DNA from: a virus
Taxonomy: Duplodnaviria; Caudoviricetes
DNA length: 57,076 nucleotides
Virus record (IMG/VR): IMGVR_UViG_3300017914_001948
Coordinates: 1 to 57,076 of that record
Strand: one strand, 5' to 3'
In this document: piece by piece, positions 1 through 56,814 of the stretch
How the letters are laid out: each line of letters starts with the position of its first letter
Numbering within the stretch: position 1 is the stretch's first letter
The notes under the pieces: model-generated
What the model saw: only the letters and a program-made list of their open reading frames with translations
Told to the model about the DNA's origin: nothing
Databases searched by the model: none
Translations under genes and position numbers: made by a program

Positions 1-358
1 ACTTAATTTAATGTTATTTTATACTAATAATGGCGTTGTGAGTGATAATACCACTGGTTGCTTTTCTGGTGGTTATGAAGAACGAACAGATTACGTAAAA
101 ACAGACGTAATTCAAAAAATTACAATACAAACTACAGGTAACGCTACTGATTTTGGTGATCTGTCTCAGGGCGGTATTTTTGGCCAACAGTGTTCAGATG
201 GCACTACAGGTGTTATAGCCCCTGGCAACGGGGTCACTAGTGATGGCAGGATTGATAAAATAACTATAGGAACTCCATCAAATGCGACTGATTTTGGTGA
301 TATGCTTGGTAACAATAGGCGCTATGAGTCCGCTGGAGTTTCAGGTAATGCAGCATAA
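1..358 (+). CDS. C-terminal part of repeat (beta-propeller-like) fibre/adhesin protein, truncated at window edge
   Basis: Frame open to position 2. ITIQTTGNATDFGDL-type repeats and the C-terminal SGNAA are shared with the two downstream paralogues. Confidence 0.75.
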   Translation, partial: LNLMLFYTNNGVVSDNTTGCFSGGYEERTDYVKTDVIQKITIQTTGNATDFGDLSQGGIFGQQCSDGTTGVIAPGNGVTSDGRIDKITIGTPSNATDFGDMLGNNRRYESAGVSGNAA

Positions 359-364
359 GGAATA
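341..364 (+). repeat. 24 bp near-identical direct repeat with 31671-31694 spanning the fibre-gene stop codon
   Basis: TCAGGTAATGCAGCATAAGGAATA vs TCAGGTAAAGCAGCATAAGGAATA; the first 18 bp also occur at 1826-1843. Confidence 0.8.
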
Positions 365-367
365 GAA

Positions 368-1843
368 ATGGGAAGATCTAGAGATATTGCAAAGTTCTTA
401 TCCTCAACAGAGGCAGAGAATACAGACAACAATGCATTGCTTCACACAGGTTCCAGTGTTGGGGTTGATTCTGCACAGGTAAAGAACATCGGTATCGCAT
501 CATACGATACTTTAGATTCACTTCCAATGTCAGGGTTGGTTGCAGGACAACAGGCATTTGTTGACTCTGCACGTAGATTGTATATCTCAAACGGATCTGG
601 TTGGTTCAATGTCGCCGTTGCAAATGCCACACCTCAATGGGATTCTGGTGGGGAACCAGATGCCTCATACGAGATTGCAGATTCTGCCACACCATTGGTT
701 ATTACCGCACGTGCGATTGATAGTGACAACTCTAATATAAATCTTTTGAATCAAAGTTTTGGTACAGACTCTGCGCAATATATGGTCGATATTAGTAATG
801 ACTCATCAGTCTTTACGTTTACGCCAAAGAGTGCCGATAGTATTGGAATTGAAGTTGGATCAGGAAACTTAACAGATTCCAACGGTGACTTTATCTATAC
901 TTTCAAATGGTCAGATGGTATCAATTTTGTCTCTAAAGCGGTGACTATCTCATACAATCCTACAGGTGGTGCGGCTGTGTGGTATGGTGACAGAGCAGTT
1001 GTCTTTGGTGGTAGTAATAGTAATGAAATTCAATATTATAATATAGCAACGCCAGGCAATGCATCTGACTTTGGCGACTTGACATATAATACTAATAGAA
1101 ACGCCGCAATAAGTGATGCGTCTAGAGGTCTCTTATGTAGTATGCCACCAATATACGGTTCTAGAATAGAATATGTCACAATTAGCACAACAGGCAACAG
1201 TACGTTATTTGGCACACTAATAAATGGTCAAGATTATACTGGGGCGGTAAGTGATGCGTCTAGAGGAGTTATAGGTAGTAAATATAATTCAGGTGCGATG
1301 GAATATGTTACAATACAAACAACGGGTAATGGAGCCGTATTTGGTAATTTAGATCCAACACAGGGGTTTGGTAATAACGGCATGGGTAATGGTAGTGATG
1401 GAACCTACGGCATCTTTGCGGGTAAGGGTGGCGTCCAAGATCTTGAAAATTCAATACAAAGAATAACCATTCAAACTCTTGGTGATGGATCGGACTTTGG
1501 ACAACTTTCTGTGAGAAGAGACCTTTATAGTAACCAAAAAGTGTCAGATCAAACACGAACAGTTTTCGCAGGTGGATACACGAATGCAAATAACAATACA
1601 ATAGATTATATAACTACTGCAACGCCTGGAAATGCGACTGACTTTGGAGATACAATCGCCGCTGTTAGAAGTGTAGGAGGAACATCAAATGGTACAACGG
1701 GGGTTTACAGTGGTGGTTATTCTACCATTACTTCCAACGTTCTTCAGTCAATAACAATTCAAACAACAGGTAATGCCACCGATTTCGGAGACTTAGCAAC
1801 AGCAAAAGGTGAAGCTCCTGCAACATCAGGTAATGCAGCATAA
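368..1843 (+). CDS. Modular virion fibre/adhesin: shared ~190 aa DS-rich N-module plus GNATDFGD-repeat C-domain
   Basis: 491 aa ORF with AAGGA RBS. About 7 repeats of Y.TI.T.GN..DFG.L; N-module paralogous to 1843, 4255 and 30237. Confidence 0.75.
   Translation: MGRSRDIAKFLSSTEAENTDNNALLHTGSSVGVDSAQVKNIGIASYDTLDSLPMSGLVAGQQAFVDSARRLYISNGSGWFNVAVANATPQWDSGGEPDASYEIADSATPLVITARAIDSDNSNINLLNQSFGTDSAQYMVDISNDSSVFTFTPKSADSIGIEVGSGNLTDSNGDFIYTFKWSDGINFVSKAVTISYNPTGGAAVWYGDRAVVFGGSNSNEIQYYNIATPGNASDFGDLTYNTNRNAAISDASRGLLCSMPPIYGSRIEYVTISTTGNSTLFGTLINGQDYTGAVSDASRGVIGSKYNSGAMEYVTIQTTGNGAVFGNLDPTQGFGNNGMGNGSDGTYGIFAGKGGVQDLENSIQRITIQTLGDGSDFGQLSVRRDLYSNQKVSDQTRTVFAGGYTNANNNTIDYITTATPGNATDFGDTIAAVRSVGGTSNGTTGVYSGGYSTITSNVLQSITIQTTGNATDFGDLATAKGEAPATSGNAA
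896..924 (+). repeat. 29 bp identical block shared with 30708-30736 at the end of the N-module
   Basis: TATACTTTCAAATGGTCAGATGGTATCAA in both. Also 638-657 = 30456-30475 and 2041-2060 = 30381-30400. Confidence 0.8.
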
Positions 1844-3372
1844 TGAGTAGATCCTTAGACATTGCCAAAATACTTCGGGCAACAGAATTAGATAATACGT
1901 CAAACAATAGACTTCTTTATGATGGTGAAGATGTTAGAGGTATGGATTCTGCAACTGTACAATCCACAGGTATGCAGTACTACTCTACTCTTGATTCTTT
2001 ACCCACAACAAACCTCGAAGTTGGACTTCTTTCTTTCGTGGAAGAAAACCGTAGACTTTACTTGTCTGACGGCAATGGTTGGTATAACACTGCATATGTT
2101 GCCAGTGCACTTCCCTATTGGGTCACAGAACCAGATTCAACATATGAGATTACTGACTCAGCGACACCTCTGACAATTACTGCACTTGCAAACGATTCTG
2201 ACAATCCACTTCTAGTCAATCAAAGTTTTGGTAGTGACTCACAAGAATTTATGGCCACAGTGACTAATGATTCATCAGTCTTTACATTTACACCTAAGTC
2301 TGCAGATAGTATTTCTCAGTCTGTGATTGCAGGAGACTTGACTGACTCCAACGGTGACTTTATATACACATTCAAGTGGAGTGATGGTGTAAACTTTGTT
2401 GCCAAAGAAGTAATTATTACATATAACACTGGCCCAGCTGGTGGTGGAGTGTGGTATGGTGATAGAGGATTGTTACAATATCAACAACCTTCTAGTCCTT
2501 TTAGTGAATATGCAGGTGTCGTTGATATTACTACAAATGGTAACGCCTCTCAATTCGGTTCATTAGAACCAACAGGTAATTATACATCTGCAGCGAGTGA
2601 TAAAACCATTGGTGTTTGGTGCGGGGATGGGTTGTCAGGTCCTATGTGTTACCTAACCTTTGCAACTTCAGGAAATGCAGTTACCTTTGGAGACGGCAAT
2701 TCATATGGTAATTTGAATACTGGGTTCAATATGCAAAGTAATGGCACATATGGAATGATGATGGGCGGATATCAGGTTGGGGCCAATGCAGGGACTGATG
2801 GACTATCACAAGGTTATCAGACTCAGATTCAGAGGTTTACTTTTGCACAAACATCAACAAGACCTACAGATTTTGGTAATTTGCAAGAAGCAACTTTTTA
2901 TTCAGGTGGTCTATCAAGTGCATCAAAAAGTTTTTGTATTGGTGGATCTACCAGTGATGGCAGAACTACAGATATAGAGATTGCATCGTTTAGTACTGCT
3001 GGAACTTCTACAACATTTGGTAATACATCAGCTGGTTCAACTTGGGCATCGGGACTTAGTGATCAAACAAGAGGTGTTTATGCACTAGGTTATACTGGTA
3101 GTCATAATAATACAATTGAATACATCACTTTAGATACATCTGGCGATGCAACAGATTTTGGTAATATGTTACAATCAAAACGTGCCGTAGGGGCAACAAA
3201 TAATTCAACGAGAGGTATATTCTGGGGTGGTTATACTGGTTCTCAACATCGAAGAAATATTGATGTTATTACGATACAAACAACTGGTAATGCAACAGAT
3301 TTTGGTGATTTGCCGGTCGTTGGTAGCTCGGGAACATACGAAAGAAGTGGTTGTTCTGGGAATGCAGCATAA
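1843..3372 (+). CDS. Modular virion fibre/adhesin paralogue (N-module plus GNATDFGD repeats)
   Basis: 509 aa, TAATG-coupled to the previous gene, same architecture, ends SGNAA. Confidence 0.75.
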   Translation: MSRSLDIAKILRATELDNTSNNRLLYDGEDVRGMDSATVQSTGMQYYSTLDSLPTTNLEVGLLSFVEENRRLYLSDGNGWYNTAYVASALPYWVTEPDSTYEITDSATPLTITALANDSDNPLLVNQSFGSDSQEFMATVTNDSSVFTFTPKSADSISQSVIAGDLTDSNGDFIYTFKWSDGVNFVAKEVIITYNTGPAGGGVWYGDRGLLQYQQPSSPFSEYAGVVDITTNGNASQFGSLEPTGNYTSAASDKTIGVWCGDGLSGPMCYLTFATSGNAVTFGDGNSYGNLNTGFNMQSNGTYGMMMGGYQVGANAGTDGLSQGYQTQIQRFTFAQTSTRPTDFGNLQEATFYSGGLSSASKSFCIGGSTSDGRTTDIEIASFSTAGTSTTFGNTSAGSTWASGLSDQTRGVYALGYTGSHNNTIEYITLDTSGDATDFGNMLQSKRAVGATNNSTRGIFWGGYTGSQHRRNIDVITIQTTGNATDFGDLPVVGSSGTYERSGCSGNAA

Positions 3373-3375
3373 ATA
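3368..3375 (+). promoter_or_regulatory. Possible T4-type late promoter variant (CATAAATA)
   Basis: One mismatch to TATAAATA, 30 nt upstream of the 3405 gene. Confidence 0.45.
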
Positions 3376-3404
3376 GTACATCACAACTTTATAATAGGTA
3401 GATT

Positions 3405-6084: not shown

Positions 6085-6090
6085 AAATCT

Positions 6091-6098
6091 TATAAATA
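6091..6098 (+). promoter_or_regulatory. T4-type late promoter TATAAATA
   Basis: Exact consensus, intergenic, upstream of gp13. Confidence 0.8.
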
Positions 6099-6129
6099 GT
6101 ACCAAACACTTTTAGTTTGGAGACTATTC

Positions 6130-6885: not shown

Positions 6886-6890
6886 TATAA

Positions 6891-14625: not shown

Positions 14626-16185
14626 ATGGCAGAAAATGATGGTTTAAAGTTATTTGGTTTCGAAATCAAACGTGCCAAATCTAAAGACGAAGAAAAACGT
14701 CCATCCATTGTTCCACCAAGGGACGATGAAGGTGGAAGTTATGCGACTGCTGCCGGATCTCATTATGGTCAATACCTAAACTTAGACGGTGATGATTCTA
14801 AGGATAACTACCAATTGGTTATGAAATATCGTGGCAATGCGATGCACCCAGAAGTGGATGCAGCGATTGAGGATATTGTAAACGAGTCGATTACTGGTAG
14901 TGAACTAGAACAGACACTCGACTTGAATCTGGACAATGTTGAAGCACCAGATAGAATCAAAAAACTAATTAAAGAAGAATTCGACACCATCTATAGTATG
15001 TTGAACTTCAAAGAAATAGGTCACGACATTTTTCGTCGTTGGTATATTGATGGCCGTTTATATCATCACCTTGTACTAGATGAGAATAAACCGAAAGACG
15101 GAATCAAAGAAATTCGTCCAATTGATGCTGCAAAGATGCGGAAGGTCAAGAAGGTAAAGTACAAGAAAGATCCACAGACAGGTGCAAAGATCGTAGAGAA
15201 GACAGAGGAGTTCTTTATCTACCAAGAGAAACCAGGCAGTTCTACTTCTGGTATCAAGATGACAAACGACTCAGTGTCTTATGTGACATCTGGTCTTCTA
15301 TCAGAAGATCGTAAAAAAGTTGTATCACACTTACACAAGGCCTTGAAACCCATCAACCAATTGCGTATGATGGAAGATGCGTTGGTTATTTACAGACTTG
15401 CACGTGCACCAGAACGTAGAATCTTTTATATTGATGTAGGTAACCTACCTCGTGGTAAGTCTGAACAATATATGAAAGATATCATGGCAAGATATCGTAA
15501 CAAGCTTGTCTATGACGCAAAGACTGGTGAGATCAGAGATGACCGTAAACACCAATCACTACTAGAAGATTTTTGGTTACCACGTAGAGAAGGTGGTAGA
15601 GGTACTGAGATTTCTACACTGCCTGGCGGTGAGAACCTTGGTCAGATTGACGATATCGTATACTTCCAAAAGAGAATGTATCGTTCATTGAATGTACCTA
15701 TCTCTCGTTTGGATACCGAATCTGTATCTGGTATTCTTGGCAGATCTACAGAAATTAATAGAGACGAATTGAAATTCCAGAAGTTTATTGACAGACTTCG
15801 TATGAGATTCTCTCATCTATTCTATGGCATTCTGAAACTACAACTTATCATGAAAGGTATTTGTACCGAAGATGATTGGGATATGTGGAAGAATGATATC
15901 ACAGTTGACTATGTAAAAGACAATCACTTTGCAGAGTTGCGTGATGCAGAGATGTTACAGAACAGACTAGAGAGTCTAGATAGAATCAGCAACTACGTAG
16001 GAGAGTACTTCTCTAAAGAGTGGGTGATGAAAAACGTTCTTATGTTAGATGATGATAACATTGAACAGATGCAAAAACAAATGTCAGGCGAAGAAGAGGA
16101 TGAACCAGAAGAGGAACAACCACCTCAAGGTAACCCTGCAGGACAAAAATTTGAATTAAAACCAGTTCAAGGAGATGAACAGTGA
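14626..16185 (+). CDS. gp20: Portal protein gp20
   Basis: LFGFEI, HPEVDAAIEDIVNE, IYRLARAPERRIFYIDVGNLP, EDFWLPRREGGRGTEISTLPGG. Confidence 0.97.
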   Translation: MAENDGLKLFGFEIKRAKSKDEEKRPSIVPPRDDEGGSYATAAGSHYGQYLNLDGDDSKDNYQLVMKYRGNAMHPEVDAAIEDIVNESITGSELEQTLDLNLDNVEAPDRIKKLIKEEFDTIYSMLNFKEIGHDIFRRWYIDGRLYHHLVLDENKPKDGIKEIRPIDAAKMRKVKKVKYKKDPQTGAKIVEKTEEFFIYQEKPGSSTSGIKMTNDSVSYVTSGLLSEDRKKVVSHLHKALKPINQLRMMEDALVIYRLARAPERRIFYIDVGNLPRGKSEQYMKDIMARYRNKLVYDAKTGEIRDDRKHQSLLEDFWLPRREGGRGTEISTLPGGENLGQIDDIVYFQKRMYRSLNVPISRLDTESVSGILGRSTEINRDELKFQKFIDRLRMRFSHLFYGILKLQLIMKGICTEDDWDMWKNDITVDYVKDNHFAELRDAEMLQNRLESLDRISNYVGEYFSKEWVMKNVLMLDDDNIEQMQKQMSGEEEDEPEEEQPPQGNPAGQKFELKPVQGDEQ

Positions 16186-20425: not shown

Positions 20426-21955
20426 ATGGGTTCAAGAAATAGACAATTAGCGGCGATCATTACAGACTCTTCAGGTGATATCAAAACTGATGCGTTTGAT
20501 AATCTTATTCAAACTTCTGTTGAACCAGAAGACCTAAACTTTGCCGTAGACGTGAGAGGGGCAGGTCACGAAGCGCCTTGGTTGTGGTCTTGGAACCCCA
20601 CAACTCTACCATATGAACGTACAAAAATTACACTGTCAAACGAAGGCGAAGTTCCAATCTATAAGAAAGGTGATTATAGATTGGATAACTATGCTGCATA
20701 TAACACAAATGGAACATCAAGTCAAGTACATAAAATATTTTTGAAATGGATTGAAGAACCAGGCACTGCAAACCTAGTTGATTGGGTCACATACGATAGT
20801 TCAAATACAGTTGAATTTGCAGGTGTTACAGACGGACTTGGTGCACAGAAAACCCAACGTCTTACTTGGACTATTCCAGAATCATTTGATATTCCAACAC
20901 TAAACACATCTACAACAAACTATAATGTGGGTGCAGTAACAGGTGCATACGTACATAGTGGTATTGCCATGGGTAACAACGTAGACATTGGACCTCTTCG
21001 TAGAGGTAATACCTACAACTTTATTCTAGACTCAACAACAAGTGGACATCCGTTCTACTTGACCACAGATAGTCAAGGTGAGTTCTCTGCAGGAACTTAT
21101 GGTGGAGAATATACAACAGGTGTAACAAACTCACGGGCCCAAGGTAGTTCTGGTACGGATGCCACTGTCACGTTTGTGGTGCCTGATGATGCACCAGATA
21201 CATTATATTATCAGTGTGGTAACCACCAAGTAATGGGTGGGGAGATCACTATCAAAGATCTTGCAGTTGAGTACACTGATGATAATGAACCAATTCTTTA
21301 TTTCCAACACAGTCAAGAGGGACACTTCACACAAGCACCTGTACGTGCAGTTCCAACTATCCCTGGCCAGATGTGTCTTACATTTGATCCAACTAAAGGT
21401 AAGTTCGTTCCTCAAGACTTGAGAGACTATATGGAAAAGACTCCAACATTCGTATCTCGTATTGTTGAGGAAATCAAAGACAACTCAATTGACTCAGATA
21501 GACATTTGGGTATCCTTCGTGCAAAAACAATTATCAACGACAGTGATATCTTTACTGGTGGAACTGGTGGTGTTGACTCTGCAGAAACCACAAGACTGAT
21601 TGACTCAGACTACATTGCAACACGTGCACTTGCAGAAAACCACACTACTTTGATGCAAGATGGAACACTTACAGTAACAACAGGTACTGCAAGATGGTAT
21701 GCCCCACGTGCAGTGAAAATTATTGGAATGAAAGCACACGTATCAACTGCACCTGCAGGGTCTGCAGTAAACATTCGTGTAAATAAAAATGGTTCTTCAC
21801 TAAGAACATTGGTGATCAACGCAGGAAGTACAAGTGCAAACCTTGGTGGTATTGCAGACGATTTATCTGCAGGAGATTATTTGACGGTAGACGTGACTCA
21901 GGTAGGATCTTCTACGGCGGGATCAGACTTAGCACTAATTATTAGATACAGATAG
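20426..21955 (+). CDS. Virion structural protein with a cupredoxin-like domain
   Basis: LRRGNTYNF..GHPFYL..PDDAPDTLYYQCGNHQVMGG; C-terminal LSAGDYLTVDVTQVGS..AGSDL domain typical of phage tail proteins. Confidence 0.65.
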   Translation: MGSRNRQLAAIITDSSGDIKTDAFDNLIQTSVEPEDLNFAVDVRGAGHEAPWLWSWNPTTLPYERTKITLSNEGEVPIYKKGDYRLDNYAAYNTNGTSSQVHKIFLKWIEEPGTANLVDWVTYDSSNTVEFAGVTDGLGAQKTQRLTWTIPESFDIPTLNTSTTNYNVGAVTGAYVHSGIAMGNNVDIGPLRRGNTYNFILDSTTSGHPFYLTTDSQGEFSAGTYGGEYTTGVTNSRAQGSSGTDATVTFVVPDDAPDTLYYQCGNHQVMGGEITIKDLAVEYTDDNEPILYFQHSQEGHFTQAPVRAVPTIPGQMCLTFDPTKGKFVPQDLRDYMEKTPTFVSRIVEEIKDNSIDSDRHLGILRAKTIINDSDIFTGGTGGVDSAETTRLIDSDYIATRALAENHTTLMQDGTLTVTTGTARWYAPRAVKIIGMKAHVSTAPAGSAVNIRVNKNGSSLRTLVINAGSTSANLGGIADDLSAGDYLTVDVTQVGSSTAGSDLALIIRYR

Positions 21956-40609: not shown

Positions 40610-41281
40610 ATGCAACGGTTTACTCAGTTTTATATAGAAGAAGGTGTCAATGATCCAGCGATCTTCAAGGCAGTCTTCTTAGCGGGTGGTCCAGGCAGTG
40701 GTAAGTCATTTATGGTAGGTAAGACTGCTTTGACTTCATTTGGCATGAAACTGATAAATAGTGATCCTGCTTTCGAGGCACAACTTGCAAAGGCAGGACT
40801 CAAAGCAACACCAGATGACATCTTCACAGATAAAGGTCAGGCTGCACGTAAGGTGGCAAAGACACTTACGAAGAAGCAAATGGAACTGGCGATCAATGGT
40901 CGTCTTGGACTTGTGATTGATGGTACTGGTAAAGATTACGACAAGATCTCTGGGCAGGCTACGAAACTCAAACAAATGGGTTACGAAGTGGCGATGATCT
41001 TTGTCAACACAGATTTGCAGACTGCAATCGATAGAGACCAAAAACGTTCAAGAACACTTGGTGCAAAAGAAGTTACTAAGATGTGGAACGATGTACAAAA
41101 GAACCTTGGTAAGTTCCAAAAGTTCTTTGGTAACATGATGGTGATTGTAGACAACTCTGATGGTGCAGACTACGAAACTGGTTCTATGACTGCGTACAAG
41201 AAAATGAAATCTTGGGCAGCGAAGAAACCAACAAAACCTGCAGCAAAAAAATGGATTGATTCCCAACGTAAAGGGAAATAA
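40610..41281 (+). CDS. P-loop kinase (zeta-toxin/AAA_33-like)
   Basis: AVFLAGGPGSGKS, LINSD, LVIDGTG, MIFVNT..A..R..R.R. Confidence 0.8.
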   Translation: MQRFTQFYIEEGVNDPAIFKAVFLAGGPGSGKSFMVGKTALTSFGMKLINSDPAFEAQLAKAGLKATPDDIFTDKGQAARKVAKTLTKKQMELAINGRLGLVIDGTGKDYDKISGQATKLKQMGYEVAMIFVNTDLQTAIDRDQKRSRTLGAKEVTKMWNDVQKNLGKFQKFFGNMMVIVDNSDGADYETGSMTAYKKMKSWAAKKPTKPAAKKWIDSQRKGK

Positions 41282-47600: not shown

Positions 47601-47606
47601 AAACTC

Positions 47607-48719
47607 ATGATATTAGAACATTCAGATGCAGTTTATGCAGCACAGAAACTTACGGAATACTTTAGAGACTTCGGACGTATCGATGATTACTTTCGTGCTC
47701 GTAAAATAGAACGTGTAAAAAACATTCCTACACCATTGCCTGGTTTTAGTATGGAAGACGATCTATTTCAAGATTATAATATGCATCCAGAGGATATGAA
47801 CTTTGTAATTACACAAATTTCCTCATCCACATTTGATACTCTGTTAGAAAAAGTTGCATCGTTTTCACCTGACAATGCGCCAGGCAAAGAAATGAAACTG
47901 GTTATCAAAGAAACTAATACAAATACTATTGTTGGTTTTATAAAATTAGGTTCACCACTTATCAACTCTAAACCCAGAAATGATTACTTAGGTGGTGTAC
48001 CAGATCTACCAGTATTCAACAAACGTGCTATCATGGGTTTTAACATTGTTCCAGTTCAACCATTTGGGTACAACTATCTTGGTGGTAAACTTATTGCAGC
48101 AATCTGTAACTCACATGAAGTACGCAGAAAATTAAACAAGAAATACGATACGGAATTTTGTTTATTCGAGACTACTTCTCTTTATGGTAACATCAAGGGG
48201 GCATCCATGTATGATGGTATGAAACCTTTTCTCAGATACAAAGGTGATACTCAGTCTAAGTTTCTATTGACGCTTGGTGAGGATATCTATCCAGAAATGA
48301 AAAAATGGTTCATAGAAAGGAATAATGGTGAAGAATTGATTCACAAGGGTGCGTCTTCACGTAAACTAAAAACGCAAACCAAGATGGTCAGTATTATAAG
48401 ACAAAGTCTCGCTAAATATGATAAACACGCTGCAATTAACTTTTCAAAAGATATTGCAAAAGCAGGTGATGTTACTACACAGAAAAGATTTTATATGGGT
48501 GAGTATGGATACTCAAACGTAAAAGATGTTTTACTTGGTAAGACTGAAACATTGACTAAAGCAGAAAACTTTGACAGGTTTGAACTTGACGGTGTAATCA
48601 CATGGTGGAGAAAACTTGCTACTAAGAGATACAACAAAATGATTGCAGAAGGAAAGGTTCGTAAAGATTTAGAAGTCTGGAATCAGGACACAATGCACAG
48701 GATTGATATTATACGATGA
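47607..48719 (+). CDS. DUF4338/DruA-like protein
   Basis: PGK...GFIKLGSP...RNDYLG, PVQPFGYNYLGGKL, FETTSLYG..SMYD pattern, recognised from memory. Confidence 0.6.
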   Translation: MILEHSDAVYAAQKLTEYFRDFGRIDDYFRARKIERVKNIPTPLPGFSMEDDLFQDYNMHPEDMNFVITQISSSTFDTLLEKVASFSPDNAPGKEMKLVIKETNTNTIVGFIKLGSPLINSKPRNDYLGGVPDLPVFNKRAIMGFNIVPVQPFGYNYLGGKLIAAICNSHEVRRKLNKKYDTEFCLFETTSLYGNIKGASMYDGMKPFLRYKGDTQSKFLLTLGEDIYPEMKKWFIERNNGEELIHKGASSRKLKTQTKMVSIIRQSLAKYDKHAAINFSKDIAKAGDVTTQKRFYMGEYGYSNVKDVLLGKTETLTKAENFDRFELDGVITWWRKLATKRYNKMIAEGKVRKDLEVWNQDTMHRIDIIR

Positions 48720-49702
48720 ACATAACAATTGCACGATTACGGTCTAACGTAAAATATAACGGCCCACTAGAAACCGTCTTAGATAGTTTCTTTGAGAACT
48801 ATGTAAAGTGGATGAGAGAGAATCCACAGTATAGATACGACACTTACAACGTATCATTTAATCAACGTAGACCAGTACGAACACCAGAGACTATCGATAA
48901 GGCAGATGTAATTGTAATTCCATCAGATTCAGAATTCAGATACCATGGTGAACTGCAAATGAATCCCAAAGACTTGGCAAAGTCTCAATCACACATTGAA
49001 AAGATTGCACCATTCTTTGAGGGTAAAACTGTTATCATGTGGAGAAGTGATAGAGGTGACACCGAAGAACTTTATCGAAGTTTCTTGCCTAACATAAAAA
49101 ACTTTATCACAATAGACGAAGTAGATTTTAGTGGAAACATTCATGGTATGAAGTATCACTTTATCCAGAGATTAAAAAACCCATTGGCGGAAATGATTGG
49201 TACAGAGAAGACAATCGACTTTGGATATTGGGGTAGAATGAAACATGGTAACGATAGAGAAAAGACAATCAGAAAAATCTATCGTTCAGAACTATCAACT
49301 GTGATGATTGGTGGATTTCCATCTGGTGTAAAGAGACAGTCTGCTTGGATTAAGGATTGGAACAAATTATATCCACTATTAGAACCAGCAAGATGCACTC
49401 TTTGTTTCAATTGGATTGACCAGACGGCGACAACTAGTAGGTATCCAGAAGCACTTTCAATTGGTATGATCCCATTTGTCTGGCAAGACTATGATATCAA
49501 CAACACATATAATATTGATCCATGGCAACGAATCACTTCACCAGAAGAGTTAGTAGAGAAGGCAATATTACTAAGAGACGAGAAATTTTTTGAAAAAAAA
49601 TTAGAAGAATTTCGTGCCAACTATTCTAAGGTATTGCTAACACAGGAAGAATACTTTAAATTATTTTCAGAAAAAATGAATTCTGCCCTTGACTTGTTAT
49701 GA
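48716..49702 (+). CDS. GT-B glycosyltransferase resembling T4 DNA beta-glucosyltransferase
   Basis: IDFGYWGRMKHGNDREK and TSRYPEALSIGMIPFVWQDYD resemble the T4 BGT C-domain motifs; similar size and syntenic position. Confidence 0.6.
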   Translation: MNITIARLRSNVKYNGPLETVLDSFFENYVKWMRENPQYRYDTYNVSFNQRRPVRTPETIDKADVIVIPSDSEFRYHGELQMNPKDLAKSQSHIEKIAPFFEGKTVIMWRSDRGDTEELYRSFLPNIKNFITIDEVDFSGNIHGMKYHFIQRLKNPLAEMIGTEKTIDFGYWGRMKHGNDREKTIRKIYRSELSTVMIGGFPSGVKRQSAWIKDWNKLYPLLEPARCTLCFNWIDQTATTSRYPEALSIGMIPFVWQDYDINNTYNIDPWQRITSPEELVEKAILLRDEKFFEKKLEEFRANYSKVLLTQEEYFKLFSEKMNSALDLL

Positions 49703-49759: not shown

Positions 49760-51010
49760 ATGAATGTAATTCCGAAGACTATCGTAGAAACTGACTTTGG
49801 TGATGTCCCTGAAAATTATGAAGGGTATCTCTATCGGTTTACTAACTTGGAGACTAATCAGATGTATGTAGGTATTCACAAGGGTAAGTTTGGCGATGGA
49901 TATTGGAACTCTGCTACTGATAAGGATATGCAGAATGAACTTGCTGGTAATGGTAAGTTTAAGTATGAAATCCTTGAGTATGGAGATTATAATACCATGA
50001 CTGCTCGTGAGCATGAAATCTTGAAGTCTGAAAATGCTCCGAATAATCCTTTGTACTACAATAAGACTGTAGGATCTCCAAAGTTTACCACTGTCAGACT
50101 TGAGGAGGTATTGGCAATCGTGGAAAAGATTCGTAATGAAGGATTTCCTATTGCAAAGGAACCCATTGAGACTGTTGTTAATATGAAGCGTTTACAGGTT
50201 CGCACTGAAGATATAAGTGATCACCAGACTGAGATTTCTCAGAAGGTAGACGATGCATTGGGTAACACTGATGGATATATGACTGTCGTTCTTGAGGATC
50301 GTGGCGGTGAAGATATGCGTATTGACGGTAACCACTCTGTCTATGGTATTGCAAAGTCTAAGTATGGTAAGAAAATTAACGTAATGCGTGTGCCCAAAGA
50401 TGTACACGAGGGTTATAATGATGCTGAAGTTCAGTTGATGGGTAACCTCCTGAATGCAAAGCCTGAACGTCCTACTGTTCCTCTTGATGCAGATGATGCT
50501 CTCAAACAGTTGATTAAGAACTTCACTGACTTGGGCACTCCTGTCACTGATGCGTCTAACAAGACACTGTTGATTGCAATGGGATTTTCAACCAAGAAGT
50601 CGAATGCAATTATCAAGAAGGCAAAGGTTGAACAGGATACTTTGATTGCTGCAATGGGTGGTAAGATTAAGATTGATTGGGATGCATCACCCTTTAATAC
50701 TCGTCTTGAAAGCATCCTTGAAGATGCAAAGGATGCCAATACTATGGCACTGACGGTTTCATCTGGTATGGTTCATGTATCTCGTATCTTGAACGAAATT
50801 TACCAGACCAATACTGGTCGTGAACAGTTGAAGCAGAATGCAAAGAAGGAAATTAAGATTTTTGTAAAACATCCCTCTGAATACTACTATAGCAATTGGA
50901 AGGACAAACAGGAACAGTCAGATACGAAGTTTTTGAAGTACTTTGCAAAGCCTTTGGGTATCACTGTTCGTTTTATTGACTTGCCGATGTACGAATCAGA
51001 TATCATGTAA
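49760..51010 (+). CDS. GIY-YIG (Seg-like) nuclease domain fused to a long C-terminal region with a ParB/Srx-like motif
   Basis: GYLYRFTNLETNQMYVGIH..Y, RE.EIL, YYNK; later RIDGNH; GAGG RBS. Confidence 0.65.
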   Translation: MNVIPKTIVETDFGDVPENYEGYLYRFTNLETNQMYVGIHKGKFGDGYWNSATDKDMQNELAGNGKFKYEILEYGDYNTMTAREHEILKSENAPNNPLYYNKTVGSPKFTTVRLEEVLAIVEKIRNEGFPIAKEPIETVVNMKRLQVRTEDISDHQTEISQKVDDALGNTDGYMTVVLEDRGGEDMRIDGNHSVYGIAKSKYGKKINVMRVPKDVHEGYNDAEVQLMGNLLNAKPERPTVPLDADDALKQLIKNFTDLGTPVTDASNKTLLIAMGFSTKKSNAIIKKAKVEQDTLIAAMGGKIKIDWDASPFNTRLESILEDAKDANTMALTVSSGMVHVSRILNEIYQTNTGREQLKQNAKKEIKIFVKHPSEYYYSNWKDKQEQSDTKFLKYFAKPLGITVRFIDLPMYESDIM

Positions 51011-52065
51011 TGAAGATACTACTTCCCTTTCAAGACCCTTACAATCATGCCCTCACTCACCCAATCGTGAGTGGGGGTACTGAAATGTTCTGTAAGAGCA
51101 TTTACGATAACTTTAATACGACAGTACACCAAGTGCCGTATGAGAGTATTGATTATTCTATGAAAGACAAAAAAAAGATATCACGAGATATTATTAATCA
51201 TGCAGAAAATATTGGTGCAGATGTTATTATATCAAACTTTGCACAAGCAATATATTGTGGTTCTGAAATTATTAAATCCCACATACCAATTATGATTGTT
51301 GAACATTGTGTATATCCAATGGCATCATGTATTACCAGATGGAACAATGCAATAGACAATGGACACTCTGTCTTTTGGGTTTCCAAGTGGCAAGAAAAGA
51401 AATATAAAAAGATGGCAGAAAGAACTAACCAGAGAGTTGTTCCGATAACAGGTTATATTAATCCATCTTATTGTAAACAGAAACCCCAAATAAATGAAAC
51501 AGAATATGATTGTGGAACTATAGGCAGATGTGATAGTGGTAAGAATCCATTTAAATTAAAACACATGACAAAGGGTAAAGATATTTCAAGTCTTGTTATC
51601 ACATCATCTACACAACTGAAGAAAGATATTCCATATTATAATAAAAATAAAGATTGGGATGACGTTGTGTGGAATGAACCGTATGATAAAGTTATAGATA
51701 ATATTGCTAAGTGTAACACATACTTTTCTACATGGAATGGTGAAACTTGGGGAATTACTGCAATGGAAGCTTTGTCCTGTGGTGTACCTGTCATATTGAA
51801 TTGTGATAATGATGGTGACCATGCATCTGAAATAATTCCAGCACATAAAGATCATTACAAAAAGATTCCAAACAATGACAAGGATGCATTATATAATGCA
51901 ATAAAGAGTTTTGATGTAGACCGAAAAGAGATTCAAGAAATGACTTGGGAAAAACATAGTCTAGATGGTTGGAAGTTACAGTTTGCAGATGCTGTGAATA
52001 GAACCATAGATAATTTTAACAGATATAATTTTAACAGACCAAGTTTATCTGCATTTATGTCTTGA
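51010..52065 (+). CDS. GT4-family glycosyltransferase
   Basis: SGGTEMF, VSKWQ, IGRCDSGKN, ETWGITAMEALSCGVPVI. Confidence 0.88.
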   Translation: MKILLPFQDPYNHALTHPIVSGGTEMFCKSIYDNFNTTVHQVPYESIDYSMKDKKKISRDIINHAENIGADVIISNFAQAIYCGSEIIKSHIPIMIVEHCVYPMASCITRWNNAIDNGHSVFWVSKWQEKKYKKMAERTNQRVVPITGYINPSYCKQKPQINETEYDCGTIGRCDSGKNPFKLKHMTKGKDISSLVITSSTQLKKDIPYYNKNKDWDDVVWNEPYDKVIDNIAKCNTYFSTWNGETWGITAMEALSCGVPVILNCDNDGDHASEIIPAHKDHYKKIPNNDKDALYNAIKSFDVDRKEIQEMTWEKHSLDGWKLQFADAVNRTIDNFNRYNFNRPSLSAFMS

Positions 52066-52090
52066 CAAACGGTATCTTATTTGATATATT
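52062..52090 (+). promoter_or_regulatory. Sigma70-type promoter (probably leaderless)
   Basis: TTGACA-17-TATATT with TG; ATG 6 nt downstream. Confidence 0.7.
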
Positions 52091-52096
52091 ACTGTT

Positions 52097-53026
52097 ATGC
52101 TTTCTTTTACAATATTCAAAAATCGTTTTGATAATAAAACAAATAAGAAACTACAAGTCAACGGATTCGATCAGTTGGAACAACTGTTGTATTCATTGTC
52201 TAAAAAACCACTGAAAGGCAAAGAAGATGCGCAACTTATTTCACCTGCAACTTATACAGATGGGACTACACGAGCCAACAAGAATGTATTATCTTGGTCA
52301 AATTGGTGTGCTGTTGACGTTGATGATTTCGAATTTGAAGGGGACCTAACAAATGTTCTATATGATAAGTTTGGTCACTATCGTTACATTTGTTATAGCA
52401 CTGCAAGCAGTACGGAAGATCTACCAAAGTTTCGTCTTGTCTTCCCTCTTACTGGTGATGTACGGGCCGATGATATCAAACATTTCTGGTTCTCGTTACA
52501 GTCAGAACTTGGGGAACTCGGTGACAAGCAGACTAAGGACTTGTCTCGCATGTATTACATCCCTGCGAAATATGACGGCGCTTATAACTTTATATTCAGT
52601 AATCCTAACGGCAATCCTATTGATCCAAATGAGTTGATGGTCAAATGGCCCTATGCGGAGAAGGCAAATCTAAATAACTTCTTTGATAGACTTCCTGACG
52701 AAATACAAAAACAAGTCATGGAACATCGTAAATCAAAACTAGACAACACAAATATAAACTGGTCATCGTATAGAGACTGTCCATTCTTTCCCAGAAAGTT
52801 AGAATCAGAATATCGATTGATTACTAACACTGGTTGGTATCACAAAATGTATCAAATCATGGTGGCGATTGCAGGTAACGCTATCAATAAAAAATATCCT
52901 ATTACTTCTGCAGAAATATCTAAGATGTGTAGAGAACTAGATATGGAGACTGGTAACTGGTACAAGAACAGACCACTAGATAAAGAAGCAGACAGAGCGT
53001 TAGAGTACGTTTATAAAAATATGTAG
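52097..53026 (+). CDS. AEP/primase-polymerase-like protein
   Basis: AVDVDD, YSTASS...PKFRLVFPL, D..TKDLSRMYYIP. Confidence 0.65.
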   Translation: MLSFTIFKNRFDNKTNKKLQVNGFDQLEQLLYSLSKKPLKGKEDAQLISPATYTDGTTRANKNVLSWSNWCAVDVDDFEFEGDLTNVLYDKFGHYRYICYSTASSTEDLPKFRLVFPLTGDVRADDIKHFWFSLQSELGELGDKQTKDLSRMYYIPAKYDGAYNFIFSNPNGNPIDPNELMVKWPYAEKANLNNFFDRLPDEIQKQVMEHRKSKLDNTNINWSSYRDCPFFPRKLESEYRLITNTGWYHKMYQIMVAIAGNAINKKYPITSAEISKMCRELDMETGNWYKNRPLDKEADRALEYVYKNM

Positions 53027-53028
53027 GA

Positions 53029-53859
53029 ATGAATATGAAAAATATTGTAATTGTTGGACACGGATATGTCGGTAAGGCAGTTGAGTATGGGTTCAACATC
53101 AAACTAAAGAATAAGATTCAACTCATCGATCCCTTATATAATAATTCAATCGACGATATCACTGGATGTGATGTTTCATTTGTATGTGTACCAACTCCGT
53201 TTGGAGAAGATGGTAAGATTGATTCATCTATTGTAGAAGATGTGACAGAACAACTCTTGGAACAAACTCGTGGGTGGGTCGTTATCAAGTCTACAGTTAT
53301 TCCAAGTGTTGTGGCGAAGTTGAGTGAAAACCAACGAGTAATCTATAACCCAGAGTTTTTGACAGAAAAGAATGCGTTAGATGATTTCGTCAATCCACCT
53401 ATGCATATCTTCGGTGGATCTTCTTCTGCAACTAATATGTTAGAAGAATTATATAAAAACAACAGTCGTTGCAAACCTTGTCCAGTATTCAAAATGTCTG
53501 CACAGGATGCATCTTTTGTAAAATATGGAATCAATAGTTTCCTTGCAACAAAGGTTATGTGGTTCAATCAGTATAAGGAGTTAATTGATCAACATGGTTC
53601 TGATTACGATACTATTATTAATGCTATTGGTACTGATTCCAGAATTGGTCACAGTCACGTTCAAGTGCCTGGCCCTGATGGTCGTAGGGGTTATGGTGGT
53701 GCTTGTTTTCCAAAAGATACATCAGCATTATCAAACTTCGACTACGATAGACACCTCACCATCTTACGTACCGTCATCACCGCCAATAATTACATTAGAG
53801 CTGGATACGAATTAGATGATCGTGAAAAAGAACAAAATGTTGTTTACATGAAACGATAA
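53029..53859 (+). CDS. ugd: UDP-glucose 6-dehydrogenase (short form)
   Basis: GHGYVG, FVCVPTP, IKSTVIP, NPEFLTE, GYGGACFPKD. Confidence 0.9.
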   Translation: MNMKNIVIVGHGYVGKAVEYGFNIKLKNKIQLIDPLYNNSIDDITGCDVSFVCVPTPFGEDGKIDSSIVEDVTEQLLEQTRGWVVIKSTVIPSVVAKLSENQRVIYNPEFLTEKNALDDFVNPPMHIFGGSSSATNMLEELYKNNSRCKPCPVFKMSAQDASFVKYGINSFLATKVMWFNQYKELIDQHGSDYDTIINAIGTDSRIGHSHVQVPGPDGRRGYGGACFPKDTSALSNFDYDRHLTILRTVITANNYIRAGYELDDREKEQNVVYMKR

Positions 53860-53871
53860 CTGTGTTATAAT
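53843..53871 (+). promoter_or_regulatory. Sigma70-type promoter
   Basis: TTTACA-17-TATAAT with TG. Confidence 0.7.
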
Positions 53872-53888
53872 ACAGTAAAGGAGATAAG

Positions 53889-54845
53889 ATGGCGTATATT
53901 GCAATTACTGGTATGGCAGGGTTTATCGGGTTCCACCTTGCACAGAAACTAAAGAAAGATGGTAATGAAGTTGTTGGGTTTGACAACTTCAATGATTATT
54001 ATGATGTGGATCTAAAGGAAGATCGTGCAAGAGTTTTGAAAGAAGACTATGATATTACTGTAAGTAATGTTGATCTGAAAAGTGCAGAAGATGTAGAACG
54101 ATGGATTGGTATTCGTCACCCAGACGTAGTGATTCATCTCGCTGCATATGCAGGTGTTCGTAACTCTATGGAAAACCCTACAGACTATATTGAAAACAAT
54201 GTGGTAGGTACTCACAATCTGATTGAGGCGTGTACAAAGAAAGGTATTCAAAGGGTAATCTTTGCATCTACATCATGTGTCATGGCGGGTAATGAACTTC
54301 CATGGAATGAAGATGACAAGTGCGGTTACCAGTTGAACCCATACGGTTATACTAAATTTACAAATGAATCACAATTTATGGCGAGTACGATTCCGTCTAC
54401 GATTGGTCTTCGATTCTTTACAGTCTATGGCCCTTGGGGTCGCCCTGATATGGCACTCTTTGACTTTACCAAAAAGATTATTGCGGAAGAAGAAATCGAA
54501 CTATTCAACTTCGGTGACATGATCCGTGACTTTACATACGTAGACGATATCGTTCAAGGTATTGGTATCGTAACAAATCATATTATCGAAAATCCAAATC
54601 AAAAAGAAATTTACAATATTGGTAATGGTCGTCAAGTTCCGTTGATGGACTTTGTAGATAATATTGAGAAACAACTTGATCGCAAAGCTATCAAGAAGTA
54701 TGTAGAGAAACATCCTGCAGATACGCAAGCAACTTGGTCTGACACTACTAAGTTACAGTCACTTGGGTACAAGGCAGAAACTTCTATTGAAGAAGGTGTA
54801 GAGAAATTTATAAACTGGTATAAGTGGTATTACAATGTCAATTGA
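53889..54845 (+). CDS. NAD-dependent epimerase (UDP-glucuronate 4-epimerase-like)
   Basis: TGMAGFIGFH, DNFNDYYDV.LK..R, HLAAYAGVRNS, YGYTK, RFFTVYGPWGRPDMA, RDFTYVDD. Confidence 0.9.
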   Translation: MAYIAITGMAGFIGFHLAQKLKKDGNEVVGFDNFNDYYDVDLKEDRARVLKEDYDITVSNVDLKSAEDVERWIGIRHPDVVIHLAAYAGVRNSMENPTDYIENNVVGTHNLIEACTKKGIQRVIFASTSCVMAGNELPWNEDDKCGYQLNPYGYTKFTNESQFMASTIPSTIGLRFFTVYGPWGRPDMALFDFTKKIIAEEEIELFNFGDMIRDFTYVDDIVQGIGIVTNHIIENPNQKEIYNIGNGRQVPLMDFVDNIEKQLDRKAIKKYVEKHPADTQATWSDTTKLQSLGYKAETSIEEGVEKFINWYKWYYNVN

Positions 54846-54954
54846 TTTGTTATATAAAAATATTGCGGAGTTTCATAACATCACAGTGAGTGAACTGAAA
54901 CAACGTATTGTAAATGGTGAACGTCTGGTGCATGAGTACTGGATGTCACAATGA
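54835..54954 (+). CDS. 39 aa hypothetical protein (not in the ORF track)
   Basis: MSIDLLYKNIAEFHNITVSELKQRIVNGERLVHEYWMSQ; fills the gap and overlaps both neighbours (ATGA with 54951). Confidence 0.5.
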   Translation: MSIDLLYKNIAEFHNITVSELKQRIVNGERLVHEYWMSQ

Positions 54955-55379
54955 TTGTAGGTATTACTTTTAGTACGTTTGACTTGTTACATGCAGGTCA
55001 CATTGCTATGTTGCGTGAAGCAAAGACAACCTGTGATTATCTTATCTGTGGACTGCAGGTAGATCCATCACTTGATAGACCAGAGAAAAATGCGCCAGTG
55101 CAGACTCTGGTTGAACGGTGGACACAGTTACAGGGTGTCAAGTATGTGGATGAGATTATCCCATATCAGTCTGAGAAAGACTTGGAAGATATCCTACAAT
55201 TGTTCCAGATCGATGTAAAGATCATGGGACAAGAATATAAAGAAAAAGATTTTACTGGCAAATCTATCTGCACACAACGTGGGATAGAGATATATTATAA
55301 TGACCGTAGTCATAGATTCTCATCTAGTGATTTACGTAAACGAGTTCAAGAAAAAGAAAATGCAGCAAAGATATCATGA
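54951..55379 (+). CDS. Glycerol-3-phosphate cytidylyltransferase (TagD-like)
   Basis: TFSTFDLLHAGH, CDYLICGL, VKYVDEII, RSHRFSSSDLR. Confidence 0.88.
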   Translation: MIVGITFSTFDLLHAGHIAMLREAKTTCDYLICGLQVDPSLDRPEKNAPVQTLVERWTQLQGVKYVDEIIPYQSEKDLEDILQLFQIDVKIMGQEYKEKDFTGKSICTQRGIEIYYNDRSHRFSSSDLRKRVQEKENAAKIS

Positions 55380-55434
55380 ATGGATAAAAGAACAGTATAA
55401 AAAATATCCTGTTGACTTAGAAGACAGTGCGTGA
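55360..55434 (+). CDS. Possible 24 aa peptide
   Basis: MQQRYHEWIKEQYKKYPVDLEDSA; overlaps the end of the TagD-like gene and the uvsX promoter. Confidence 0.3.
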   Translation: MQQRYHEWIKEQYKKYPVDLEDSA

Positions 55435-55440
55435 TATAAT
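55412..55440 (+). promoter_or_regulatory. Sigma70-type promoter for uvsX
   Basis: TTGACT-17-TATAAT with TG, followed by AAGGAG RBS. Confidence 0.75.
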
Positions 55441-55460
55441 ATCGGAAAAGGAGAAACTAA

Positions 55461-56489
55461 ATGTCAATTATGGATAAACTAAAAAAGAACAGTAAACTGG
55501 ATAATACATCTGTTCTTGCCGAGTCGAAGTTCTTTACAGAGAAAGACATGGTTCCTACAAGTGTTCCGATGATCAACGTTGCATTGTCTGGATCTATTGA
55601 TGGTGGTCTGGCACCAGGCCTGACAGTTCTTGCAGGTCCATCCAAACACTTCAAAACATCTTTTGCTCTTATCATGGCAAGTGCGTATCTGGAAAAGTAT
55701 CCTGATGCTGCAGTGTTGTTCTATGACTCAGAGTTTGGTTCGCCTCAATCGTACTTTGAACAGTACGGTATTGATGCGTCTCGTGTTTTGCATACACCTA
55801 TCACAAATGTAGAAGAACTAAAGTTTGATTTGATTTCTCAACTAGAGGCATTGAGTCGTGATGATAAAGTTATCGTCGTAATCGATTCTATTGGTAACCT
55901 TGCATCTAAAAAAGAACTAGAAGATGCAATCAATGAAAAATCGGTTGCAGATATGTCACGTGCAAAATCTCTCAAAGGTTTGTTCCGTATGTGCACACCG
56001 TATCTTGCAATGAAGAACATTCCAATGGTGGCAGTAAACCACACGTACAAAGAGATTGGATTGTTTCCAAAAGATATCGTTGGTGGTGGTACAGGTGTAT
56101 ATTATTCTGCAGATAACATTTGGATTCTTGGTCGTCAACAAGACAAGGTTGGGACGGAGATCAAAGGTTATCACTTTGTAATCAATGTAGAGAAGTCTCG
56201 TTATGTGAAAGAGAAGTCTAAGATTCCTATCAGTGTTTCTTGGGACGGTGGTGTGAGTACCTACAGTGGACTACTGGCTGTCGCACTTGACGGTGGGTAT
56301 GTTGTAAAACCATCCAATGGTTGGTATCAACGGAATGGATCAGATAGTAAGGTGCGTGAGAAAGAAACTCTCAACTGGGCATTCTGGCAACCTATCTTTG
56401 AAGGAACTGACTTCAAGGACTTTGTAAAGTCTAAGTTTTCAATCGGTGGTAATGTCTCTAACGAACTTGATATTGAAAATGCAGCATAA
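55461..56489 (+). CDS. uvsX: RecA-like recombinase UvsX
   Basis: NVALSG, AGPSKHFKT, FYDSEFG, IDSIGNLASKKE, GGGTGVYYSAD, KSRYVKEK. Confidence 0.96.
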   Translation: MSIMDKLKKNSKLDNTSVLAESKFFTEKDMVPTSVPMINVALSGSIDGGLAPGLTVLAGPSKHFKTSFALIMASAYLEKYPDAAVLFYDSEFGSPQSYFEQYGIDASRVLHTPITNVEELKFDLISQLEALSRDDKVIVVIDSIGNLASKKELEDAINEKSVADMSRAKSLKGLFRMCTPYLAMKNIPMVAVNHTYKEIGLFPKDIVGGGTGVYYSADNIWILGRQQDKVGTEIKGYHFVINVEKSRYVKEKSKIPISVSWDGGVSTYSGLLAVALDGGYVVKPSNGWYQRNGSDSKVREKETLNWAFWQPIFEGTDFKDFVKSKFSIGGNVSNELDIENAA

Positions 56490-56814
56490 CGAAAACGAAA
56501 CGTATGAACTAATCCCAGGCGAAGGTGACAATGATCAGTGTTGGCACATTCGCATTCTTGAAGGTGACTTTGTCGAGACTGTAATTCAGTTCGGCAATGT
56601 CACTATTCATGGTGGTGAAGATGACGAAGATGGACATATGAAATTCAATTTTCATATTGTTACATCGCCAGATTCTGAACTGACTGAAGAAAGTGAGGAA
56701 CTACAAGAGACTGCAGGCGAGATTCTGCTTGCACTTATTGAAGAAAACTTGTATAATAACACAAGTGAAATGATGATAAAAGAACCTCACGAAGAAGAAT
56801 GGAAACGTGCGTGA
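56479..56814 (+). CDS. Small acidic protein at the gp40 position
   Basis: Lies between uvsX and gp41 as gp40 does in T4; sequence identity to gp40 not established. Confidence 0.6.
   Translation: MQHNENETYELIPGEGDNDQCWHIRILEGDFVETVIQFGNVTIHGGEDDEDGHMKFNFHIVTSPDSELTEESEELQETAGEILLALIEENLYNNTSEMMIKEPHEEEWKRA

Follow-up and report, generated by a model that had tools for sequence, protein, structure and literature searches.

Surviving CCNGG and CCGG sites in a marine T4-like phage contig overlap a GpC step, which suggests a protective DNA mark and a DruA-like candidate writer

The sites CCNGG and CCGG are avoided in the 57,076-base record IMGVR_UViG_3300017914_001948 (the window, which is the whole stretch of DNA analyzed and the entire database record), and each copy that survives overlaps a GpC step, with a G on its 5' side or a C on its 3' side. 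The window is derived from a marine T4-like myophage and contains about a third of the genome. The avoidance and the flank rule are also found in related loci and in cultured phages, and among cultured relatives the retention of flanked sites is linked to a gene for a DruA/DUF4338-like protein of predicted GNAT fold (positions 47607-48719 of the window, + strand, 370 amino acids). The pattern is explained, with a probability of about 0.65, by selection against nuclease target words combined with a shield in GpC context. As writer of the proposed mark in GpC context, the protein from 47607-48719 is the candidate, a more tentative assignment that is given somewhat less than an even chance.

There are 38 CCWGG sites in the window, 23 of them CCAGG and 15 CCTGG. 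The first C of every site is located on codon position 1, and together the sites represent every Pro-Gly dipeptide (38/38) of the 67 open reading frames (ORFs). These in-frame Pro-Gly sites begin at positions 221, 1052, 1625, 5053, 5608, 6766, 10977, 11289, 12692, 12788, 13637, 14128, 14188, 15232, 15622, 16531, 19970, 20030, 20759, 21362, 22617, 24271, 25235, 28205, 31017, 31608, 32257, 35096, 38239, 40691, 43204, 43936, 47092, 47739, 47880, 53668, 55614, and 56515. The dipeptide is spelled CCA-GGC in 23 cases, nnG-CCT-GGn in 13, and CCT-GGC without a preceding G in 2; CCC and CCG are never used for Pro, and the spellings CCA-GGT, CCA-GGA, and CCA-GGG do not appear. The hexamer CCAGGC/GCCTGG holds 36 of the 38 sites. 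The other two are CCCTGGC, located on the + strand at 221-225 (GCC-CCT-GGC) and 21362-21366 (ATC-CCT-GGC), where the only flank is that of CCTGGC, on the T-strand. A 5' G or a 3' C is present at all 38 sites, and in the orientation of the window it is the C after CCAGG that counts (36 sites, plus 2 that read GCCAGGG). CCGG appears only twice, at 3313-3316 (context GCCGGT) and 14753-14756 (context GCCGGA). CCSGG is absent, which is not a separate fact because every CCSGG contains CCGG. The Pro-Gly and CCGG counts are identical to those given in an earlier first-pass annotation of the window.

Expected counts were obtained from synonymous codon shuffles, using 200 shuffles for hexamer counts and 100 for the division by frame and flank. 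A site is designated flanked if it overlaps a GpC step (G 5' or C 3'), bare if it has no such flank, and forced if it is an in-frame Pro-Gly. CCAGGC/GCCTGG is the hexamer with the strongest over-representation (36 vs 6.0 expected, z 13.3), and ACCTGG/CCAGGT is absent (0 vs 24.5 expected). For forced CCWGG, 38 flanked sites are found where 6.9 are expected, and no bare sites where 25.7 are expected. The other frames are empty of the word, with 0 vs 4.4 expected for flanked and 0 vs 17.2 for bare copies (total 0 vs 21.6). Bare CCWGG across all frames of the window thus amounts to 0 vs about 43 expected, and CCAGGA, CCAGGT, and unflanked CCAGGG together to 0 vs about 41. The count for CCGG is 2 vs 44.1 expected (bare 0 vs 29.9; flanked 2 vs 16.0). 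The bias noticed in the first-pass annotation is therefore upheld against a codon-shuffled null.

These sites are not removable by synonymous change because Pro-Gly always spells CCNGG, and the bias is instead seen in the adjoining codons. Gly is encoded by GGC after CCA in 23/23 cases, after GCA, ACA, or TCA in 12/148 (8%), and overall in 142/1341 (10.6%). A G-ending codon stands upstream of CCT in 13/15 cases if Gly is next, and in 4/64 and 14/119 cases before other codons (6-12%). The flank rule is identical on both strands, CCAGGC and GCCTGG both being present, and a strand-symmetric rule indicates selection on the DNA, as had been claimed from the first reading. A codon-pair effect in translation, or a mutational bias, has almost no probability as an alternative. 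It would agree with the confinement of the sites to one reading frame and with the appearance of the bias as codon choice, but CCA requires a C after it and CCT a G before it, GGC remains at 8% after other NCA codons, and the word is also missing from the two other frames. Moreover, Pro-Gly is spelled bare in S-CAM9, Syn19, and other phages with no CCNGG avoidance, and selection for a lower per-site mutation rate would be too weak to produce 38/38.

Relatives of the window were collected as 80 IMG/VR loci via gp23 and as 80 IMG/VR loci via the 47607-48719 protein (70-83% identical, closer kin). In the latter set 343/356 CCWGG sites and 55/56 CCSGG sites are flanked, and 336/356 CCWGG sites are in-frame Pro-Gly. 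Among the gp23-fetched loci all CCWGG sites are flanked in L013, L028, and L050 only; in the other 77 the flanked fractions are 135/520 for CCWGG and 47/111 for CCSGG. No comparable flank enrichment is seen for the control words GGWCC, GGSCC, CGWCG, GCWGC, CCWCC, CCNNGG, CAWGG, and CCWTG. The CCNGG rule is constant within the clade while the counts per locus range from 0 to 58 for CGCG and from 0 to 26 for CCGG, and it is independent of these two words, since it is kept in loci with normal CCGG and CGCG. Where CCGG is rare, 51/53 of its survivors are flanked, many of these sites being homologous. Within the DruA-like protein, residues 92-93 are a conserved Pro-Gly, which is encoded by at least nine different flanked codon solutions over the 80 loci and is bare in 2 loci; it is written bare in the non-pattern phages S-CAM9, HTVC008M, S-PRM1, S-B68, S-T4, and S-SCSM2R. 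So many flanked spellings at a single Pro-Gly indicate that the rule is maintained by selection and not merely inherited.

The first-pass annotation had assigned all Pro-Gly sites to one context, CCAGGC/GCCTGG. This holds for the present contig (36/38) but not for its relatives, in which both orientations are used and the shared rule is a G 5' or a C 3' of the site. GCCAGG is also accepted in the cultured phage S-SSM7 and in the 80 loci, which lean only weakly toward the orientation of the window (118 vs 85). A separate depletion of CTGGC as the source of the orientation bias was ruled out (DCTGGC 31 vs 38.8 expected; DCAGGC 29 vs 35.5). As to why this contig keeps so strictly to CCAGGC, the writer may prefer an extended context, or the nuclease may not be equally sensitive to marks on the A- and T-strands.

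The whole genome of S-SSM7 (GU071098.1) contains 10 bare CCWGG sites vs 203.7 expected and 183 forced flanked sites vs 38.7 expected. Outside the Pro-Gly frame the counts are 13 vs 29.5 (flanked) and 1 vs 75.6 (bare), and the rule is symmetric, with GCCAGG and CCAGGC alike accepted. The flanked copies of four words are exempt in this phage, namely CCWGG, CTGCAG (bare 0 vs 46.1 expected, flanked 27 vs 38.2), CTCGAG, and CCATGG (bare 3 vs 24.7, flanked 18 vs 13.2). ATGCAT, TTCGAA, GGTACC, GTGCAC, and TACGTA are absent from the genome altogether. In phage C48C1 the CCNGG counts are 19 vs 152.8 expected for bare and 69 vs 67 for flanked sites. Phage Syn19, which has the same isolation host strain as S-SSM7, does not avoid CCNGG (137 vs 139.9 expected).

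The difference between S-SSM7 and Syn19 bears on the proposal that a phage-encoded CCNGG nuclease degrades host DNA and that the phage genome has been purged of its own enzyme's sites. These two phages share avoidance of CCGG, GGCC, and AGCT, and CCNGG is avoided by S-SSM7 only; the constancy of the CCNGG rule in a clade whose other avoided words vary would also fit. This proposal is nevertheless very improbable. The four ORFs found in S-SSM7 and C48C1 but not in Syn19, S-SSM5, and S-CAM9 encode an "antioxidant protein", an epimerase, a UDP-glucose dehydrogenase-like protein, and a 71-amino acid protein, and no nuclease-like gene has this distribution. No Vsr match was obtained in the five records searched, the 10 bare sites persist in S-SSM7, and the exemption of G-flanked copies of other words would be left unexplained.

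The window phage looks like one under broad nuclease pressure. CGCG is absent (0 vs 49.2 expected), and TTAA (88 vs 309) and AGCT (31 vs 110) are depleted. Of the palindromic hexamers that have four G/C but lack GGC and GCC, 15 of 22 are wholly missing (2.6 to 8.3 expected each); CACGTG, CAGCTG, CCATGG, CTGCAG, GTGCAC, TGCGCA, and AGCGCT survive at or above expectation. No flank rule was seen at the partly avoided words TTAA, AGCT, GCGC, GGCC, AATT, and TCGA, and sparing of hexamer palindromes that contain GGC or GCC was not significant, there being only two such words with four G/C. Avoidance of short palindromes is ordinary in virulent phages, which likewise lack many palindromes relative to a codon-preserving null. 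The present case differs in that it depends on the base beside the site, reaches into neighbouring codons, and lowers the use of Pro-Gly.

It is proposed that the DNA has been selected to lose short nuclease target words, including CCGG, CCNGG, CGCG, and many palindromic hexamers, and that the forced Pro-Gly sites are spelled so that the outer C follows a G, either by the rare GGC after CCA or by a G-ending codon before CCT. The G-C overlap would serve as a shield: the phage would mark its own DNA at GpC steps, most likely on cytosine, and the nuclease would be blocked once the outer C is marked, whether on one strand or on both. The writer would most likely be the DruA/DUF4338-like protein of predicted GNAT fold from 47607-48719, acting on double-stranded DNA after replication by analogy with Mom of phage Mu. 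A shield at an overlapping GC step had been suggested in the first-pass annotation; as a reading of sequence patterns it is partly supported and the best-supported one on comparison, with all survivors overlapping a GC step and Synechococcus phage S-B43 providing a parallel, while the extended GCC(T) context belongs to this contig only.

In S-B43, a T4-like cyanophage with the gene set CmoA-CmoX-CmoY, CmoX is described as carboxymethylating cytosine in a GC motif, and this mark blocks the restriction enzyme HhaI (Yang et al., Nat Commun 2025, PMC12783734). As in the window, CCGG is purged in S-B43 and the survivors are all flanked by G/C (8/8; bare 0 vs 172.9 expected, flanked 8 vs 54.6). CACGTG behaves similarly (bare 0 vs 9.8 expected, flanked 6 vs 9.2). 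S-B43 differs from the window in that its writer has a C5-methyltransferase fold and in that CCNGG is not avoided (292 vs 293.6 expected).

The association between the DruA-like gene and the flank exemption was determined with 20 cultured relatives in which bare CCGG is purged, 11 of them DruA-positive and 9 DruA-negative. Sf-CH8 (49 vs 96 expected), SynMITS9220M01 (19 vs 85.1), S-SM2 (17 vs 60.8), S-B68 (207 CCGG in 80 kb), and S-SKS1 (25 vs 32.7) were left out since their bare CCGG is not purged; S-B43 and C48C1 were counted apart, and 15 phages were sampled over 50-100 kb of genome each. At least two flanked CCGG sites are kept in 10/11 DruA-positive phages (2 to 37 each, 112 summed) and in 0/9 DruA-negative phages, whose flanked sites sum to 1 vs about 286 expected (Fisher p 1.2e-4, uncorrected for relatedness). 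The DruA-like gene was also considered as a correlate of CCWGG avoidance itself, which was rejected, as CCWGG avoidance is entirely absent from seven cultured phages that are DruA-positive. The gene link concerns the flank exemption and not the choice of the avoided word.

Other C-initial words share this exemption. When ten DruA-positive genomes are pooled, the strongly avoided palindromes starting with CC retain 126 flanked copies vs 378 expected and 4 bare copies vs 863, and those starting with C and then a non-C retain 43 vs 150 flanked and 3 vs 248 bare. For all C-initial purged palindromes the totals are 169 vs 528 flanked (approximately a third kept) and 7 vs 1111 bare. The flanked copies of purged palindromes with other first bases number 1 vs 108 expected for G, 1 vs 133 for T, and 21 vs 248 for A, so that about 1% is kept for G- or T-initial words.

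These data can be compared with an explanation that involves no modification, in which the nucleases need a non-G before CC (HCCNGGD-type recognition) and a flanking G:C simply removes the site from recognition. In its favor, the enzymes known for CCGG/CCNGG-type sites (SexAI, PfoI, PasI, BsaWI) cleave ahead of the first C and do not all have the same flank specificity. This explanation would also accommodate the unequal orientations in the window, through unequal cutting of the two strands, as well as the pattern in C48C1, which has no candidate gene, the exemption of CCWGG but not CCGG in S-SSM7, and the lack of matches to the known DNA-modifying families PF00145, PF01555, and QueC in the window and in complete S-SSM7. 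However, the same 5'-G exemption is found at at least five words (CCGG, CCNGG, CTGCAG, CTCGAG, CCATGG), all C-initial, and only in DruA-positive or CmoX-positive phages; the nine DruA-negative phages retain a single flanked CCGG. One odd negative flank rule would have to be common to several unrelated nucleases. Because the exemption covers several words and C-initial ones only, a flank preference of the nucleases is unlikely, and a mark on the C of GpC is favored.

The window by itself cannot separate GGC from GpC, since CCWGGC contains GGC, and a 7-deazaguanine (or other guanine) mark in GGC context might be considered as the shield. Phage CAjan reportedly carries a 7-deazaguanine-type mark at GA and GGC (ascribed to Kot et al. 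2020). The top CCWGG context in CAjan and in phage 9g is TCCAGGA (19 vs 7.1 and 19 vs 6.2 expected, respectively), which has GA on both strands. A guanine mark is nonetheless extremely improbable here. QueC matches are obtained in CAjan and 9g, but none over the cut-off in the window (a partial contig), S-SSM7 (16.2 bits only, sub-threshold), C48C1, or the L136 record, and the exempt sites of S-SSM7 include G-CTGCAG and G-CTCGAG, both without GGC. The whole genomes of CAjan and 9g show no CCWGG avoidance. A search for the TGT family gave no match in five records, but it also missed the enzyme of CAjan and is uninformative.

The first-pass annotation had proposed looking for a methyltransferase or base-modification gene outside the window. 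A methyltransferase there finds no support, as the complete footprint-bearing relatives S-SSM7 and S-CAM9 have no C5-methyltransferase, and the leading candidate (47607-48719) is part of the window itself. PF00145 gave no match in S-SSM7, S-CAM9, or 17 other relatives, and the same search recovers CmoX of S-B43 (E 4.9e-54). Likewise, tblastn with CmoX found nothing in the window (approximately 33% of the genome) or in 83 clade loci. An N6_N4 methylase was found in S-BM3 only. No EcoRII-C match was obtained, the controls being equally silent, so this search is uninformative.

The protein from 47607-48719 matches Pfam PF14236, the family of DruA of the Druantia system, only marginally (28.3 bits vs a cut-off of 27; residues 73-192, profile positions 62-181 of 297). 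Its PHROGs match is phrog_19197 (E 5.8e-152), of unknown function. The DUF4338 domain is described as a GNAT domain by Aravind and colleagues (PMC10853773). A structure model built on 23 homologues has a low confidence, with a mean predicted local distance difference test score of 64.9. Foldseek with this low-confidence model gave weak matches to GNAT-type chains (top match E 7.5e-3), and VIA-align with the same model placed Mom of phage Mu first (8bv8_A; Z 8.0, root-mean-square deviation 4.2, 154 aligned residues, 9% identity), tied with other GNATs at Z 7.5-7.7. A profile of the 23 homologues gave no match to chains of the Protein Data Bank at E up to 1. Many marine T4-like phages have a homologue, among them the cultured S-CAM9, S-SSM7, and pelagiphage HTVC008M, and one relative's homologue is annotated as "methylcarbamoylase mom".

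The neighbours of 47607-48719 are a DNA polymerase, a cupin, MazG, an unknown ORF, a homing-endonuclease-like fusion, and a glycosyltransferase; in relatives the gene is set amid clamp-loader genes. No druABCDE-type defence operon was found among the neighbour genes. The stop of the DruA-like gene lies in a 4-base overlap with an ORF of 328 amino acids at 48716-49702, for which neither Pfam nor PHROGs gave a match and which has no homologue in S-SSM7.

The GNAT enzyme Mom of phage Mu, as described in Nat Commun 2026 (PMC13219725), uses Gly-tRNA to acylate the adenine of SAS in double-stranded DNA after replication and protects the DNA from many restriction enzymes. It is the top structural match of the DruA-like protein, tied with other GNATs. 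Its target is different, however. Every CCAGG includes a CAG and hence an SAS, but in the window the copies of CCAGG that lack a flanking G:C have been purged. The resemblance to Mom would therefore be one of mechanism and not of membership, because the footprint follows GpC and not the SAS adenine.

The C5-methyltransferase/TET clusters of phages, in work attributed to Burke et al. (PNAS 2021), are said to hypermodify Gp5mC (5mC, 5-methylcytosine) as a sparse post-replicative GpC mark that is held to protect from restriction. The system proposed here would share with them a sparse, post-replicative mark in GpC context; it differs in that no methyltransferase partner was found, and no search aimed at TET-like genes was made. 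2-Oxoglutarate/Fe(II) oxygenases are annotated in relatives. Marks in GpC context are thus already known in phages, and a writer of the GNAT type would be new. It is conceivable, though somewhat short of even odds, that the DruA/DUF4338-like protein of predicted GNAT fold is a DNA-modifying enzyme of a novel type, which would acylate a base at GpC after replication, for example at the N4 amine of cytosine, and so be to cytosine what Mu Mom is to adenine. The bacterial DruA of Druantia may share such chemistry.

Several observations weigh against a GpC shield written by this protein. The window is still purged of words in which GpC is internal (CGCG 0 vs 49, AGCT 31 vs 110; GCATGC, GAGCTC, and GCTAGC all 0), and S-B43, a GpC modifier by published data, avoids AGCT too (256 vs 630 expected). 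A plain symmetric GpC mark does not itself explain why CCAGGC is used 36 times and CCTGGC alone only twice. The DruA-positive S-SSM7 keeps 0 flanked CCGG (64.5 expected) and 0 flanked CAATTG (36.2 expected). Flanked sites are not neutral, because the dipeptide falls short of expectation in the proteins of pattern phages (observed/expected for Pro-Gly 0.88, 0.82, and 0.71, vs 1.0-1.33 in six others). C48C1 has the CCNGG footprint without a DruA-like gene or a C5-methyltransferase match, its only annotated methylase being Dam-like. The gene link is based on 20 related phages, the fold model is of low confidence, and the modified base in these phages is deduced from a footprint in their genomes.

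No printed account of the flank rule was found in the literature searched, whose supplements may hold more. If the proposed reading is correct, silent codon choice alone would reveal both the target of a marine nuclease pressure (bare CCNGG and CCGG) and the sequence context (GpC) of a phage DNA mark, and a candidate writer would emerge from a family without assigned function that is the namesake of a Druantia defence component. Selection on DNA sites can evidently be strong enough to fix an adjacent codon and to thin out a protein dipeptide. The prediction is testable on the cultured phages S-SSM7, S-CAM9, and HTVC008M.

The window is a linear fragment estimated at approximately 33% of the genome, with 67 ORFs called on the + strand throughout that cover 99% of the sequence. 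Pfam and PHROGs identify T4-type structural genes (neck, gp15, both terminase subunits, sheath, tube, portal, prohead protease, scaffold, gp23) and genes for replication and recombination (UvsW, gp46, gp45, gp44/62, Hsp20, family B polymerase, UvsX). Among cultured relatives, phage C48C1 has the closest gp23 (65.7% identity), followed by Pelagibacter and Synechococcus myophages (55-60%). A megablast search of the window against cultured phages gave no DNA similarity, and sensitive blastn gave three short matches with 2% coverage. Words sampled from the window are present at 0.87-0.95 in three runs of one study, and all 20 run rows are water or biofilm metagenomes; these matches support no more than a marine origin.

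Other departures from the codon shuffle were noted in the window. AGC (248 vs 566 expected) and GCT (190 vs 333) are depleted on both strands, and TGC (868 vs 656), TGCA (530 vs 363), and CTGCAG (55 vs 22) are enriched. GCT is a recognition triplet of the T4 primase, to which the depletion may or may not be related. Gly-Pro is present at half of its expected count (22 vs 43.3), the corresponding value for Pro-Gly being 38 vs 43.3, and GGWCC is slightly low (23 vs 35.5).

A zeta-toxin/AAA_33-type P-loop kinase is encoded at 40610-41281, amid replication genes. The cluster at 49760-55379 contains a homing-endonuclease-like N-terminus fused to an unknown domain, a GT4 glycosyltransferase, a primase-like protein, a UDP-glucose dehydrogenase, an NAD-dependent epimerase, and a small cytidylyltransferase-like protein. 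The nucleotide-sugar genes (UDP-glucose dehydrogenase and epimerase) are common to the window, S-SSM7, and C48C1, but they were set aside as a candidate basis of the footprint, as S-SCSM2R has the dehydrogenase without CCWGG avoidance. The UDP-glucose dehydrogenase of the cluster has homologues in phages with hypermodified DNA, such as Bacillus phage SP-15 and the Campylobacter CP220-type phages.

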